A DNA stretch of 64,000 bases from Eledone cirrhosa (GCA_964016885.1 OZ024753.1:21824001-21888000); one strand, 5' to 3'; positions 13,198 through 63,130 are shown, numbered from the stretch's first letter. The notes: generated by a model not told the origin, from the letters alone. Translations and numbers: made by a program.

Positions 13198-13620
13198 ATA
13201 TATATATATATATATATATATATATATATATATATATATATATATATATATATATATATATATATATATACATATATATATATATATATATATATATATA
13301 TATATATATATATATATATATATATAGTGGTGGAACACTGGAAGGTGATATACGTAGTGGATATCCAGGCGACGAGTTAGGTAGAAGTGGTTACACAACA
13401 GTTTGTTCACCATACCGAGAACATACCTTCGCGGATCTTCAGCTCGGGATGTGTATGGTTATAGGAACAGAAAGGACAACCGTACGAACGCGCATGCGCA
13501 GAAACTCGCTCACTTCACACAGGCAATACTAGACTGCGTGCGGGAGATAACTGCGAAAGTCTGGAAAGTTTTTAGGTTGAAAATAAAATTAAAAGAAATT
13601 AAAAATTATATTACAAAGAA

Positions 13621-15320
13621 TCAGTCCGGAGCCTTGTAGTTATGCTATAGATGTTTGGTGACGTGTGGACAACGTGTGAAAAATTCACTTCTCGTGTTTA
13701 GGCAATCACTATTGCGTAATCTCTTTAGGATAGTTATTCGTTCGTCAATACATAAGCCACACGTCGGATTTCCCCTTGCGTATGGCTGGGACTTAGTGAT
13801 GGCTTTCCATTGAATGGAGTAGCCTATACTTGAGTCCTTGAGCGACCATGCGTGGCTCGCGAGTTTTGTGGATGAACGTCTGTCCAGGTATCTGAAGGTA
13901 GACTGGTGGTTCAGGAAACGCGCCTTGAATCGGCCCTCCGCCACGCCCACATAGGATTTGACCTCCTGTGGTTCATTTGGTCGGTTAGAAGTGACCACAG
14001 CTTCATAGATTACAGCTGGTGTGTGGCATTGCTGTTGAAGAGGGCAAGCTTTAGGCTTACGGCAAGAGCACCCTGGTGGGGTGTTGCTCCTAGTGCTGCT
14101 GGTGATGTGGGCCTTCATGTTCTTAGCGCAGGAGTATCCTAGTTTAACTTTGTGTCGGTTAAAGATGGAGCGATATTTATGACCTATGGGGAAGTGTCTA
14201 TCTAAGAGGGCTAGAAATGTTTTTCCTACATTGGTTTTAACGTTGAGTGAGAAGGGAGGAGAGAACCAGATAGTTTGTCTATTGATGCGCTTACTTTTCT
14301 TAATGGTGTTGTTGCTAGTGGGAGAGTAGGTGATAGGTTGTGAGAAGCCGCTGTTAACCAACGCCGTGTTATAGTAGGGTGCCGCCCTGTCAAAGATAGC
14401 CTGAGAGGAGAGGTTTGAGATTCTAGTACTGATATTCTTAACGAAGTTTCTAAAAACAGTGGGAGGGTGGCATGAGTCCTTGTGAATGTAATTAAGTTTC
14501 TCGTTTAGCTTATGGAAGGGTCTGTGGGTGTGTGTGCGAAGGTCTAAATTAATGTCTAAGAAATCTACGCTAGAGAGGTTGGTGGCTACTGTTATCCTAA
14601 GGCCTAACTCATTGAAGGTAGAAGCTAAGTCTTTTTTAAACCGGTCGAGGACGTGACCACTTTTATGGCTCGATAAAGTCAGTCCATCGTCACGGTATAT
14701 TCCCGTGTGGAAGTCCGTGAATCTAACACGTAATATGTCTAAGATAAAAAGGCCAACCAAGTCACATACGTCAGCACTGTCAAACTATCCCATGGAGACG
14801 TCGAACAGGTCTGAAGATGTAGACTTCTTTACCCAGGCTACTCCGTCGTTGAAGAGGAGAGTTTTCCGGCAGTGAGCGATGATTTCCCTGTCTAAACCAT
14901 CGACGGTGGTATAAGTGGTAGCGAAGTCCAACGCTCTGTTTAACAGGGTCTCTGAGATCGACGGGTAAAAATCGACAATGTCAAACTGTGTGAACTTCGC
15001 TTTTTTGGATTTTAAGGAGTTAAACCACTGAATTACGGAGTCGCTGTTCTCCCACTGGGGCAGGTTGGACTTGGTCCTCATGGTCTTAACTATGTTTCTA
15101 AGTATGGCCTTACTGACTAGTCCCATATCTGTGCGTGCCGGGTTTATTAGTCTACATGTGGGGTTAGAATTAAAGTCTACCTTGTGATCTTTCAGGGTGA
15201 GGAACGCCTCACGCTTAGCTAGAGATTGTAGCTTCTTATCTACCTTAAGGTCGGTGGGTTGGCGAGTTCCTTGGCTTCTTTATTAATGTCGTGGTAGGCC
15301 ATAGGGTTAGCTTTCTTATC
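13621..15320 (-). pseudogene. PLE RT plus GIY-YIG with TAG stops at 14785 and 13645, 5' truncated
   Basis: TLKDHK, QFDIVDFYPSI, FDVSMG, GIYRDDGL, SCHP, CSCR..CPL..C, VIYEA..YVG, CGLC, CPH. Confidence 0.9.
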
Positions 15321-16303
15321 TAATAAGGCTATCTTTGACAGGGCGACACTCTACTATAACACGGCGTTGGCTAACAGCAGCTTCCCACAACCTATCACCT
15401 ACTCTCCCACTAGCAACAACACCATTAAGAAAAGTAAGCGCATCAATAGACAAACTATCTGGTTCTCTCCTCCCTTCTCACTCAACGTTAAAACCAATGT
15501 AGGAAAAACATTTCTAGCCCTCTTAGATAGACACTTCCCCATAGGTCATAAATATCGCTCCATCTTTAACCGACACAAAGTTAAACTAGGATACTCCTGC
15601 GCTAAGAATATGAAGGCCCACATCACCAGCACCCCTAGGAGCAACACTAGGAGCAACACCAGGAGCAACACCCACCAGGGTGCTCTTGCCGTAAGCCTGA
15701 AGATTGCCCCCTTCAACAGCAATGCAACACATCAGCTGTAATCTATGAAGCTGTGGTCACTTCCAACCGACCAAACGAACCACAGGATGTCAAATCCTAT
15801 GTGGGCATGGCGGAGTGCCGATTCAAGGCGCGTTTCCTGAACCACCAGTCTACCTTTAGATACCCAGACAGACGTTCATCCACGAAACTCGCGAGTCACG
15901 TATGGTCCCTCAAGGACTCAAGTATAGGCTACTCCATTCAATGGAAAGCGATCACTAAGTCCAAGCTATACGCAAGGGGAAATCCGACGTGTGGCTTATG
16001 TATTGACGAACGAATAACTATCCTAAAGAGATTACGCAATAGTGATTGCCTAAACACGAGAAGTGAATTTTTCACACGTTGTCCACACGTCACCAAACAT
16101 CTATTGCATAACTACAAGGCTCCGGACTGATTCTTTGTAATATAATTTTTAATTTCTTTTAATTTTATTTTCAACCTAAAAACTTTCCGGACTTTCGCAG
16201 TTATCTCCCGCACGCAGTCTAGTATTGCCTGTGTGAAGTGAGCGAGTTTCTGCGCATGCGCGTTCGTACGGTTGTCCTTTCTGTTCCTATAACCATACAC
16301 ATC

Positions 16304-16343
16304 CCGAGCTGAAGATCCGCGAAGGTGAAACAATTGTTCTCGG
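16304..16343 (+). ncRNA. minimal type I hammerhead, stem III CAATTG
   Basis: CCGAG-CTGAAGA-TCCGCGAAGGT-GAAA-CAATTG-TT-CTCGG. Confidence 0.8.
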
Positions 16344-16419
16344 TATGGTGAAACTAACTGTTGTGTAACCACTTATATATATATATATATATATATATAT
16401 ATATATATATTTATATATA

Positions 16420-60763: not shown

Positions 60764-62192
60764 CAATGTCGGACTTGAACCAAACACCACCTCTAGCATC
60801 AAACATAAGGGGCACACCTTATACCACATACCCAACACTCATTGATCTAATATAACACAAATCGCGACATCCCTCTAGAACCCTTCACAGGGGGAATACC
60901 CCTTTGTACCTCTACTTTAGGTGTGACAACATCCACTTGCTTGAACTGCACTACACCACTTTATAGTTAATTTAAGCATTGAATTGATTGTCTTGTTGGT
61001 GCTGTGCGGAGGAAGTGCCATCGTTGGACAAATGAAAAACTAATTAATCTAGTAACGCTGATGAGCTGTATGACCGGTACGCTGGGTGCAGTGAATGAAT
61101 GTATTGCAAGTGGCGTATGGGTTGTACATATGTGTATGATTTGATGGTCAGTTTGGAGTCATGAGGACTGTGGATTGACCTCTGGTCGGCCCTGGTGATG
61201 ATTATCTTTCGACATCCAATGTGGCAGGCACTGACCCGGAACTTACCAGGGATCATTGTGTGTTGAAGTGATTCTGCAATCACCTTGCTTGGTTCCTTGA
61301 GTAGACTGCAACCACAGAGATCATTAATTTAGAATTCTCGCTCGTCGTGTATAATATTCATTTGTGGCACTCTACGACGGGGGTTAATCACCATAATAAG
61401 AACACCTTCAGCACAACTTAATAGACTACTCTATAGTTTAAATTTTTAGAAATTTTTTAGAATTGGCGCATAACCATATAAGTTAGGGTCTATTTTGAGA
61501 CACAATTTAATAGTTAGTAATAGAAACCAATGAGTTACCTCCCCTCATGCATTAACCCCCCTTAGCCACACACACACTTCCGGGTAGTATTTCGATGTCG
61601 ATTCTCGCAACGTAACATCCTCCTGTATTGAGCCAAAGAACATCAGAATACGATTCTCTAACTGGATTGTCAAACGCCCAATATCGAATCGTCGTGGATT
61701 ATGTGGGGGGGGGGGCGTATAATCTGAAAAATACGCTCCCCAGACTATGAAAATGTCGCAGTGCATGAAACCCATATCATCGCTTCGCTACGCATTTCCA
61801 ATATTTTTAATGCTTACACTATTTTTAATACTTATATTATTTCTCCACACACAGACTATAACAATCATATAAAGAATTCATCACCAGATCAACAACCTTA
61901 ACACTCTCGATTACCTGCTTAAGTGCTTCTACTACACGTAACCCTCTGCCACACTATATAAACAAGACGCACGTGCTTGCCACACATATAACGTTTGCAC
62001 TATATAACCGCTTAATTTCATGTTGTATTTTAACCTGTATTTTTGATTGTATCTTTTAATATGAATGTAATCTCTAAGTGTGTACTGCCACTCTAAATGT
62101 TATAATGAATGTTGACCCACAATATTTGCATATGTATCTGTATGTCCCCTGGGTGAAAAGGAGGTCATATAAGTGTTCATTCAATAATAAAT

Positions 62193-62239
62193 TGCTCCGA
62201 AGAATCCAAACCTCGGTTTGGAGGAAACAGTTGTAAGCA
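62193..62239 (+). ncRNA. hammerhead-like motif with CCGAAGA core (copies 55834-55880 -, 23682-23729 -, 24266-24312 +)
   Basis: TGCT-CCGAAGA-ATCCAAAC-CTCG-GTTTGGAG-GAAA-CAGTTG-TA-AGCA. Confidence 0.7.
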
Positions 62240-62310
62240 TAAAAATGTTTTGAACAGTTCTTTGATTATTATAATTCATATATATATATATATATATATA
62301 TATATATATA

Positions 62311-63130
62311 TAGGATATGTGTTCCTTCACGCACAAGGCGCTAAGGTACGCATGTATTGTCCAACCAAATGCCAGTGTGGTTCAATGGCGGGTTAATAAA
62401 TTAACGAGCCAGAACAAATATAAACAAGGTTTAGCAAATAATGAAAAAGTTTCAAAATAAATTTTAAAAAATTGACTTTACCTACTATAGTTACCTTTAC
62501 CGATCGGTTTCGAATCCCAAAAATAAAACGGAGACCATACGGCCTTCGTTGCAAAGAAAGATTCTCGTCAGAAGGTTCTTTTCATTCAAAGAATATAAAA
62601 TTCCTGAATTTAAATTACAGACTAGCGCTATCAAAACTGTTCCCGGGATGAGAGTGGATGATGTAGAAACAGGTTTATCAAGGGCCGAAGCACACTGGCA
62701 TTTGGTTGGACAATACATGCGTACCTTAGCGCCTTGTGCGTGAAGGAACACATATCCTATTACTACTACCTCCTCTAATGTTGAGAACAAATTTGGTCGT
62801 TCTGACTGCTGCTAGCGATAGCTGTGGCTGGTTTAACCTACCTCCTTCTGCCTCTATCTTTGCTTCGGCCCTTGATAAACCTGTTTCTACATCATCCACT
62901 CTCATCCCGGGAACAGTTTTGATAGCGCTAGTCTGTAATTTAAATTCAGGAATTTTATATTCTTTGAATGAAAAGAACCTTCTGACGAGAATCTTTCTTT
63001 GCAACGAAGGCCGTATGGTCTCCGTTTTACTTTTGGGATTCGAAACCGATCGGTAAAGGTAACTATAGTAGGTAAAGTCAATTTTTAAAAATTTATTTTG
63101 AAACTTTTTCATTATTTGCTAAACCTTGTT
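62311..63130. mobile_element. non-coding inverted HHR element M, ~470 nt unit
   Basis: tail 62311-62408 plus arm 62409-62691 (-); then tail end 62692-62759, unique 62760-62862 and arm 62863-63130 (+); (TA)n on both sides. Confidence 0.92.
62977..63060 (+). ncRNA. type I hammerhead, stem III CCGATCGG (mirror copy 62493-62576 minus)
   Basis: ACCTT-CTGACGA-GAATCT..GGATTC-GAAA-CCGATCGG-TA-AAGGT. Confidence 0.9.

Follow-up and report, generated by a model that had tools for sequence, protein, structure and literature searches.

One-tailed inverted insertions in an Eledone cirrhosa genome window point to a probable coupled priming of Penelope-like elements at two template sites

We analyzed a window of 64,000 nt (G000:C13:21824001-21888000, the whole stretch of DNA studied) in the 3.0-Gb genome of Eledone cirrhosa, in which Penelope-like elements (PLEs) and non-coding hammerhead repeats are inserted as pairs of inverted arms, of which almost always exactly one carries an additional tail. 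The tailed arm is called T and the untailed arm U; U stops at site 1 and T at site 2, and the sense strand is the one that carries the open reading frame (ORF) or the hammerhead. As read from the assembled sequence, T/U pairing was found in about 96% of the sampled inverted copies, and in most families the template 3' of both sites can form the same bulged stem-loop. We consider it probable (roughly 60%) that both ends of one staggered cut prime the reverse transcriptase (RT) at two sites of one RNA and that the resulting cDNAs are then joined.

Arms in the window were identified by self-BLAST and direct reading of the sequence. A first-pass annotation had listed nine stretches of one common plan, and all nine consist of outward-facing inverted arms, 88-99% alike, with a single-copy tail on exactly one arm (Table 1). 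As had been proposed, both family N copies end at the same site. The tails measure 59-177 nt rather than 58-170 nt; the shortest, in family P, was shortened by a deletion, and the longest belongs to the family E insertion, which follows the T/U plan but begins at about 22657 instead of 22720 and is flanked on its left by a short interspersed element (SINE) rather than (TA)n. The stretch 45501-45724, previously given as probable, also follows the plan, with flanks of the (CA)n type instead of (TA)n. Arms had been described as nearly always ending in TA repeats; 255 of 324 ends in our sample adjoin at least 6 nt of TA alternation. Of the eight families, five (right arm of 13327, N, 41936, 49327 and 62311) have the expected hammerheads near the outer ends in the window, whereas the copies at 22657, 26674 and 45501 failed our own type I descriptor, which was scored one insertion at a time. 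Each family has two fixed sites, 35-177 nt apart.

To avoid selection for tails, the genome was queried with arm sequence only for seven families; the 40 best candidates were scored and 30 loci taken for each, a sample biased toward copies resembling those of the window. For N and P, 40 further, longer stretches were added. Family M, of which an exact 29-mer has at least 14,967 matches genome-wide, was instead sampled in genome order (30 loci and 60 stretches, about the first 92 matches). Identical stretches and one segmental duplicate (L108) were removed before counting, and a tail-containing query, judged to be biased, was excluded from the main T/U count. Among 168 inverted insertions of the eight families, 162 were T/U (E 18, F 17, G 12, H 13, K 24, M 47, N 17, P 14; six of them window copies), three were T/T, none was U/U, and three had one non-standard end. 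T/U pairs, 162 of 165, are thus far in excess of T/T and U/U pairs, the comparison suggested by the first-pass annotation (binomial against one half, p about 3e-44). Family M, with its sampling in genome order, gave 47 of 51. By-catch pairs in the flanks, which include families Q, R, V, S and Z, other PLE clades and some loci from the tail-biased query, yielded 35 T/U among 44 resolved pairs, two T/T, one U/U and six with one non-standard end; a further 32 could not be resolved. A palindrome scan blind to family classed 92 of 123 palindromes as asymmetric, 12 as flush and 19 as having extra sequence on both sides, and those of the flush class that were inspected mostly represent internal TA runs, pairs of SINEs or separate insertions. 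Lone copies were about equally T and U (38 and 43 in a first tally, before longer stretches paired some of them). Nine of 95 apparent singles carry a micro-arm of 10-14 nt, in every case of the opposite type (by eye).

At least eight more asymmetric families were seen without any query (L027, L245, L248, L249, L336, L341, L003 and L243).

Palindromes next to microsatellites are prone to misassembly, microsatellites and repeats are dense throughout the window (self-alignment), and locus L359, called T/T in family M, is a later inverted duplication that includes its flanks. Fold-back during assembly, a concern already raised in the first-pass annotation, can still be set aside for practical purposes: 438 private variants distinguish the arms, the asymmetric ends are fixed, and raw Illumina reads from other samples with the same species label contain opposite-strand joints, four in H (runs X10 and X11) and three in M (X10 and X12), together with (TA)n loose ends at M site 1. 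These reads bear on the family pattern, not on individual window palindromes. The H unit was also found as a 483-nt repeat in a contig of organism B.

The asymmetry could also have arisen late, if insertions were T/T at birth and one tail was deleted between a TA-rich site 1 and the flanking (TA)n. Site 1 is indeed TA-rich in most families, and a few T/T copies occur. We nevertheless find this route improbable, as the young families, with arms less than 2% apart, show no T/T beside 30 T/U (N 17, H 13), U/U pairs do not accumulate in older families, TA homology is almost absent from site 1 of family P, and the micro-arms follow the rule.

On the template 3' of each site we found RCTC (or GTTC) followed by an upper stem (2-6 or more pairs), a variable loop, a 3' bulge of 2 nt (TT or TA; a single T in P) and GAGY (or GAAC). 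This stem-loop begins 2-11 nt after the site (in one case at -1). It follows site 1 in all eight families, for P and F in copies other than those of the window; the window copy of F is degenerate, and the hairpin is intact in 8 of 13 other F copies tested. It follows site 2 in N, M, G, E and H, the five families with a known continuation, although the outer pair is mismatched in H. A guessed pattern for the continuation of the P tail gave 0 matches. In its strict form the stem-loop was detected at 16 of 28 sites and in 5 of 810 background windows (shuffled sequences: mean 0.16, maximum 2), and in a relaxed form in 21 of 30 site stretches and 14 of 782 background windows. The outer pair, left free in the relaxed search, was G-C in 11 and A-T in seven of the 21 instances. 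The structure is kept in 116 of 141 tailed arms.

RNAalifold, applied to 16 of the 21 instances (the four with the longest loops and the one with the 1-nt bulge were left out), returned the same fold, with four of six pairs changing on both sides. Compensatory changes filled 19 cells, a value not reached in any of 500 shuffles; this covariation is weaker than it looks, as the search demanded the inner pairs and some rows are related. With a model built from the 16 rows, 15 of the 16 best window matches lay at such sites, eight being training rows; among the others were the S unit (kin to one training row at site 1), E site 1 and the tail-only Z copy. Most of the asymmetric families seen without a query have the hairpin at site 1, with L003 and L243 as exceptions. 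It was not found in the Neptune-type insertion at 241-5041 or in family Q at 19390-19786.

In F, P, K, R and M, RCTC or RCT often comes after GAGY, giving a near palindrome through which alternative pairing or an RNA dimer could arise.

The first-pass annotation had proposed that both strands of a cut (TA)n prime cDNA at two template positions, and the junctions speak for this proposal. Inner junctions were resolved in 138 of the 162 T/U insertions (of the 24 dropped, nine are F). Most are blunt, overlap by 1-7 nt or contain a few extra bases. Overlaps of at least 4 nt, present at 23 of 70 junctions in N, P and M and at about 2% of random positions, are inflated by BLAST extension and by a palindrome at many M junctions. 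U extends further upstream in 89, T in 46, and three are ties; in 11 the T arm terminates within the tail, without any sequence common to the U arm. Two separately primed cDNAs are favored by the T arms that terminate in the tail, by the opposite type of the micro-arms and by spacers that extend one or the other arm. A single fold-back cDNA is disfavored, since a fold-back primed at the U end has no source for a tail.

In the mechanism we propose, a staggered cut in (TA)n would leave two 3' DNA ends, both of which would prime reverse transcription. Each hairpin would bind one RT-endonuclease (RT-EN) protein, so that two subunits would sit on one RNA with the tail as a tether between them, and each subunit would hold one 3' DNA end. 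One T and one U arm per RNA would result without extra assumptions, because one RNA offers each site once. Where the arms overlap, strand displacement may have allowed a second copying of the RNA, or two concatemer units may have served as templates; PLE RTs are not known to have RNase H. The cDNA 3' ends would be joined blunt or via 1-7 nt of microhomology, and a lone T or lone U copy would arise when one end is left unextended. In four families (N, G, H and E) the central part of the insertion continues through site 2 into the next unit, and in the window copy of G the U arm passes through site 2 of the preceding unit; the template was therefore a tandem or permuted unit, and ending at site 2 is not obligatory. 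Two K copies in non-repeat targets (L222 and L235) have clear target duplications of 11-15 bp, and candidates were found in 34 of the 162 insertions, most being masked by (TA)n.

Tail-only copies running from a site 1 start to a site 2 end between TA-rich flanks were seen at window positions 63226-63308, near position 1387 of L082 and near position 2405 of L172; the mechanism would predict such a product if the second primer went unextended. In the long N copy the tailed cDNA leaps from the ORF to just 3' of site 2 (58085-58237) and recopies the tail, and this second piece halts within the site-1 hairpin before joining the other arm.

A different origin would be one continuous strand, formed by snap-back of the cDNA or by a jump to an antisense transcript, with the ends set by later EN cuts or by the antisense start. 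The hairpins would then be DNA or promoter signals, and the model would come close to the self-priming of PMC3846280 and the "EN-mediated resolution" of PMC8557442 (here and below, published sources are cited for the parts available to us). Inner ends do cluster: by hand counts, 23 of 82 in M lie about 167 nt and 16 of 48 in K about 110 nt before site 1, and in M the cluster lies at a 6-nt palindrome that was found at junctions in raw reads as well; palindromic sequence at inverted junctions and two-way TATA motifs are described in PMC3846280. Most junctions, however, are non-palindromic, and the greater reach of U, the T ends inside the tail and the micro-arms speak against a continuous strand. 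Moreover, with sense RNA as template, the Anolis element PAc starts at both sites and from both strands (PMC11167929). A jump to antisense RNA would still be compatible with our data. We regard a continuous strand as an unlikely source of the pairs. Our guess is that the inner-end clusters in M and K mark the RNA 5' end; none of the K and M junctions examined for it lay at the hammerhead cleavage site.

Both arms of an insertion come from the same source, to judge from the variants that they share. Minor variants common to both arms number 245, with 82 expected, and the distance between arms is 0.035 within and 0.053 between insertions (lower within in 98 of 120 pairs); in family M it is 0.024 and 0.070 (lower in 33 of 34). 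At subfamily-diagnostic positions the arms are concordant in 516 of 560 cases, and 44 are discordant where 241 would be expected if the arms were independent. Subfamilies active at different times, or arm-to-arm conversion, would give the same signal.

The same data would fit dual priming on two RNAs transcribed from one source locus and brought together in an asymmetric complex or used in a fixed order (first nick at site 2, second at site 1). Two RNAs would explain without strand displacement why most arms contain the same template region, up to more than 1 kb, and why T arms do not accumulate at site 1; diagnostic sites are discordant in a few pairs, and twin and dual priming are inseparable by sequence data in L1 as well (PMC2837659). 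On the other hand, either site appears to be usable alone, since lone copies are T or U about equally, and two free RNAs with both sites each should also yield T/T and U/U. The agreement at 516 diagnostic positions likewise speaks against them. On balance we think two RNAs unlikely, if a little less so than a continuous strand.

Several observations weigh against the use of two sites on one RNA. T arms show no pile-up at site 1 (seven ends in a 25-nt window and 8, 4, 10 and 5 in neighboring ones), such as a collision on one RNA might cause. Only in 14 of 120 pairs is an arm closest to its own partner (nine ties), L278, L064 and L121 have 2-3 discordant diagnostic sites each, and it is the T/U rule, not the concordance of the arms, that points to one and the same molecule. 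The stem-loop motif was defined by eye on the sites on which it was later tested, some rows being related families, and the hairpin seems unneeded for the T/U rule in general, because the Neptune-type element and family Q obey the rule without it. Finally, symmetric T/T insertions exist at M L347:7724-8077, which looks real, and at K L335:4061-4392, the one real T/T of the by-catch; Q L258:6016-6545 is T/T-like by eye, and Q L145:2446-2549 is U/U, nested in a larger palindrome. The remaining T/T calls dissolve: beside L359, L319 in family M consists of two separate singles, and the second by-catch case of two copies 5.8 kb apart. The one-tailed pattern, which the first-pass annotation had called strict, is therefore a strong rule and not an absolute one.

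The palindrome around the U/U pair of family Q (L145:2326-2670) is a perfect one of higher order and reads T/U, TA run, U/U, TA run, U/T.

Coupled priming on one RNA could be extended to the clade. For Hydra-type PLEs we give even odds to a programmed two-ended integration, in which a stem-loop duplicated in elements from corals to sea cucumbers would load two subunits, non-coding RNAs with both hairpins would ride along, and other clades would use the same geometry with other signals. In File S7 of PMC8557442, inspected by eye, the motif is visible in coral Hydra-2_Amil and sea-cucumber Hydra-2_Ajap, and twice in Hydra-1_Ajap, about 70 nt apart and 5' of the ORF. Copepod Hydra-1_Crog has a near match; in the same file the motif was not seen in Hydra-1_Amil, a consensus without tail, nor clearly in Hydra-1_Obim.

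Families N, P and M are Hydra-type PLEs by the motifs of PMC8557442, on which the assignment rests because a Pfam search with their proteins gave no match at E<=0.01. DKT occurs in the M and N proteins and RLRW in M and P; exact RWK was not found (RWT, RWI and RWR stand in its place, and the N copy is degenerate there). All three families have a CxCx5C linker, no CCHH, and CxxC and CxH around E and N. Their targets are (TA)n, and the hammerhead descriptor is satisfied by 16 of 17 N, 13 of 14 P and 41 of 47 M insertions. M (about 3.7 kb) and N (about 4.2 kb) exceed the usual <3 kb of the clade. Locus L314 of family M has an open frame of 821 aa, a single ORF with YRDD and GIY-type motifs whose GIY-YIG EN is C-terminal. 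The short copy at 49327-49760 is thus a truncated member of a coding family, and the earlier view of the short copies as non-coding parasites does not apply to all of them. A metagenome scan with the M protein gave 150 pattern matches, none of which was confirmed. A lone U copy of M lies at 5116-8737 (RT-EN frame 6602-8287), within the TA run that terminates the Neptune-type element.

The insertion at 241-5041 and L243 are Neptune-clade PLEs judging by DKG, the Cx2-5CxxC linker and two cysteines in the GIY-YIG core; Pfam gives RVT_1 and GIY-YIG matches, and by motif we presume both to be Neptune rather than Nematis. The U inverted arm of the former spans 242 to about 910 bases beyond the left edge of the window. 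H, G, S and E (483, about 520, 538 and about 585 nt) resemble non-LTR (long terminal repeat) retrozymes in being tandem non-coding units. The type I hammerhead descriptor is satisfied by 13 of 13 H, 9 of 12 G, two S units and 0 of 18 E, and, in the families without an ORF in the stretches examined, by 10 of 17 F and 0 of 24 K. An Rfam scan of the window listed no hammerhead at E<=1; its only matches were chance ones, microRNA-like, to repeats. In the N hammerheads (window 62197-62235 and 23686-23725), CCGAAGA replaces the CUGANGA core in the 16 of 17 that pass a widened descriptor.

Two other identities were considered for the insertions. A DNA transposon or miniature inverted-repeat transposable element with terminal inverted repeats in TA was rejected, as the ends are asymmetric, the inner junctions variable and RT-EN frames present. 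An L1-type twin-priming product proper was also rejected, since both sites are fixed and internal and the arms mostly overlap; the likeness is one of working principle alone.

Table 1. Inverted insertions and bulged stem-loops in the 64,000-nt window (window coordinates).
Feature	Position	Strand	Remarks
Neptune-type PLE (by motifs)	241..5041	+	Tailed right end, 35 nt; Cx2-5CxxC linker
Family P, Hydra-type PLE (by motifs)	13327..16374	-	Tail left 13327-13385 (59 nt); RT-EN frames 13645-15279; U arm 15326-16373
Family Q	19390..19786	+	Tail about 40 nt, left; U right
Family E, tandem non-coding unit of about 585 nt	22657..23420	+	Tail left 22657-22832 (about 177 nt); U arm end about 23418
Family N, short copy	23476..24351	+	Tail left 23476-23644 (about 172 nt); U arm right
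Family F	26674..26965	+	U arm left; tail right 26897-26965 (about 70 nt)
Family G, tandem hammerhead unit of about 520 nt	41936..42903	+	U arm left; tail right 42823-42903 (about 82 nt)
Family K	45501..45724	+	U arm left; tail right 45664-45724 (about 63 nt)
Family R (tail kin to K)	46649..53035	+	U arm left; T arm right; nested insertions between
Family S, 538-nt tandem hammerhead unit	48076..49198	+	Tailed right end; left arm end at a non-standard site
Family M, truncated copy of coding Hydra-type PLE (by motifs)	49327..49760	+	Tail left 49327-49417 (91 nt); U arm right
Family N, near full length	55626..62280	+	Tail left 55626-55796 (about 172 nt); inverted arm to 58079; U end 62280
Interior of the preceding copy	58085-58237		Second tail piece, then sense body; RT-EN frames 58422-60763
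Family H, 483-nt tandem hammerhead unit	62311..63130	+	Tail left 62313-62422 (about 111 nt); U arm right
Family Z, tail-only copy	63226..63308	+	Flanked by two TA runs; starts at site 1
Stem-loop after site 1, family E	22758..22823	-	
Stem-loop after site 2, family E	23014..23038	+	
Stem-loop after site 1, family N short copy	23598..23638	-	
Stem-loop after site 2, family G	42334..42360	-	
Stem-loop after site 1, family G	42822..42854	+	
Stem-loop after site 1, family K	45663-45690		
Stem-loops, family S	48126, 48550, 48664, 49087		Two per unit
Stem-loop in tail, family M	49380-49411	-	
Stem-loop after site 1, family N long copy	55750..55790	-	
Stem-loop after site 2, family N long copy	58284..58307	+	Just 5' of ORF
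Stem-loop after site 1, family H	62376-62418	-	
Stem-loop after site 2, family H	62766-62790	+	Outer pair mismatched
Stem-loop, family Z tail-only copy	63228-63260		Bulge TG

The Neptune-type element and families Q, R and S had been absent from the first-pass annotation. An RT-EN frame of family Q with the linker CTNRKCIIC lies at window 53040-55575 and at L370:3699-5790; we presume it to be Nematis-like. A Poseidon-like PLE frame (17213-18748, minus strand, Pfam RVT_1 and GIY-YIG) lies within 16807-18748, which has a direct repeat at its 3' end and in which no inverted arm was seen. Broken frames at 33589-34834 read like the RT of a non-LTR retrotransposon (long interspersed element) with a C-terminal zinc finger. 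Tandem arrays are made of 110-nt and 29-nt units (24943-25728 and 30976-31479).

An abundant 180-nt SINE-like repeat with A- and B-box-like motifs occupies window positions 10546-10735, 12547-12910, 21279-21459, 22285-22655, 27399-27548, 43190-43376, 52095-52278 and 55217-55398, as well as L154:1038-1497. In 11 of 18 family E insertions it is no more than 120 nt away from the tailed end, compared to 2 of the 144 remaining tailed ends and none of the untailed ends. The L154 copy interrupts an E tandem at site 2 and is accompanied by a short duplication, and from this placement and duplication the repeat seems to target the ATT-rich site 2 of E.

T/U insertions are a real and common genome feature, family M alone having at least 14,967 29-mer matches. 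If the proposed mechanism is true, it would be a retrotransposition route without a dedicated second-strand step in the closest mobile relatives of telomerase; the template-boundary hairpins of telomerase RNA are a possible parallel. The hairpin pair would be a cis signal for how animal retrozymes borrow PLE enzymes, and the hairpin and the end rule together offer a means to annotate PLE-type elements. The origin of inverted PLE insertions and of the one-sided tail is named as open in PMC8557442 and PMC11167929, and near-exclusive pairing with a covarying RNA signal at both starts reduces the question to a small set of direct experiments with an existing assay.

The one-sided tail, the two start sites, retrozymes as PLE passengers and twin or dual priming in L1 have all been published. 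Searches of mainly open texts (Repbase notes and figures were outside their scope) did not return the near-exclusive pairing, the coupled two-ended reading or the twin hairpin. Inverted, one-tailed insertions of endonuclease-containing (EN+) PLEs are known (PMC8557442, Fig. 2 legend; PMC3846280). There the tail is 30-40 bp long and optional and is ascribed to EN resolution or self-priming, with no counts in the parts at hand, whereas the families described here are T/U in about 96%, have tails of up to 177 nt and end on both sides before a repeated RNA motif. The Poseidon element PAc cuts and extends both strands in vitro, with two internal start sites on either side of the tail; it does not need hammerhead cleavage, and a dimer is predicted (PMC11167929). 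In its available part, that paper couples the two sites to no two DNA ends, treats no inverted products and mentions no more than an "AC-rich stem loop"; in the sequence of its Fig. S1 an arrangement UUC-UG..CA-UU-GAA is seen by eye, which we take as a lead only. The Hydra clade is described with DKT, RWK, CxCx5C, no CCHH, a hammerhead, a (TA)n target and, as a tendency only, a length below 3 kb (PMC8557442). N, P and M have in common with it DKT, RLRW or an RW-type motif (M and P), CxCx5C, CxxC and CxH, hammerheads and (TA)n; the twin stem-loop is not described for the clade in the available part of that paper.

Animal non-LTR retrozymes have been proposed to be moved by PLEs (PMC7229834; PMC4209133; bioRxiv 10.64898/2026.07.22.740005). 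H, G and S, and E in layout, share with them tandem non-coding units of 480-590 nt and type I hammerheads. The available parts of these papers give no inverted layout or end rule, whereas the units described here carry the hairpins and the end rule of the coding Hydra elements. In L1 twin and dual priming, both ends of a staggered cut prime, and inverted pieces lie within a target duplication and meet at short microhomology (PMC2837659). L1 uses its poly(A) end and a variable internal site, and the middle is deleted. The PLE families of Eledone cirrhosa, in contrast, use two fixed internal sites, their arms overlap in most cases, and two-armed copies are as a rule inverted.

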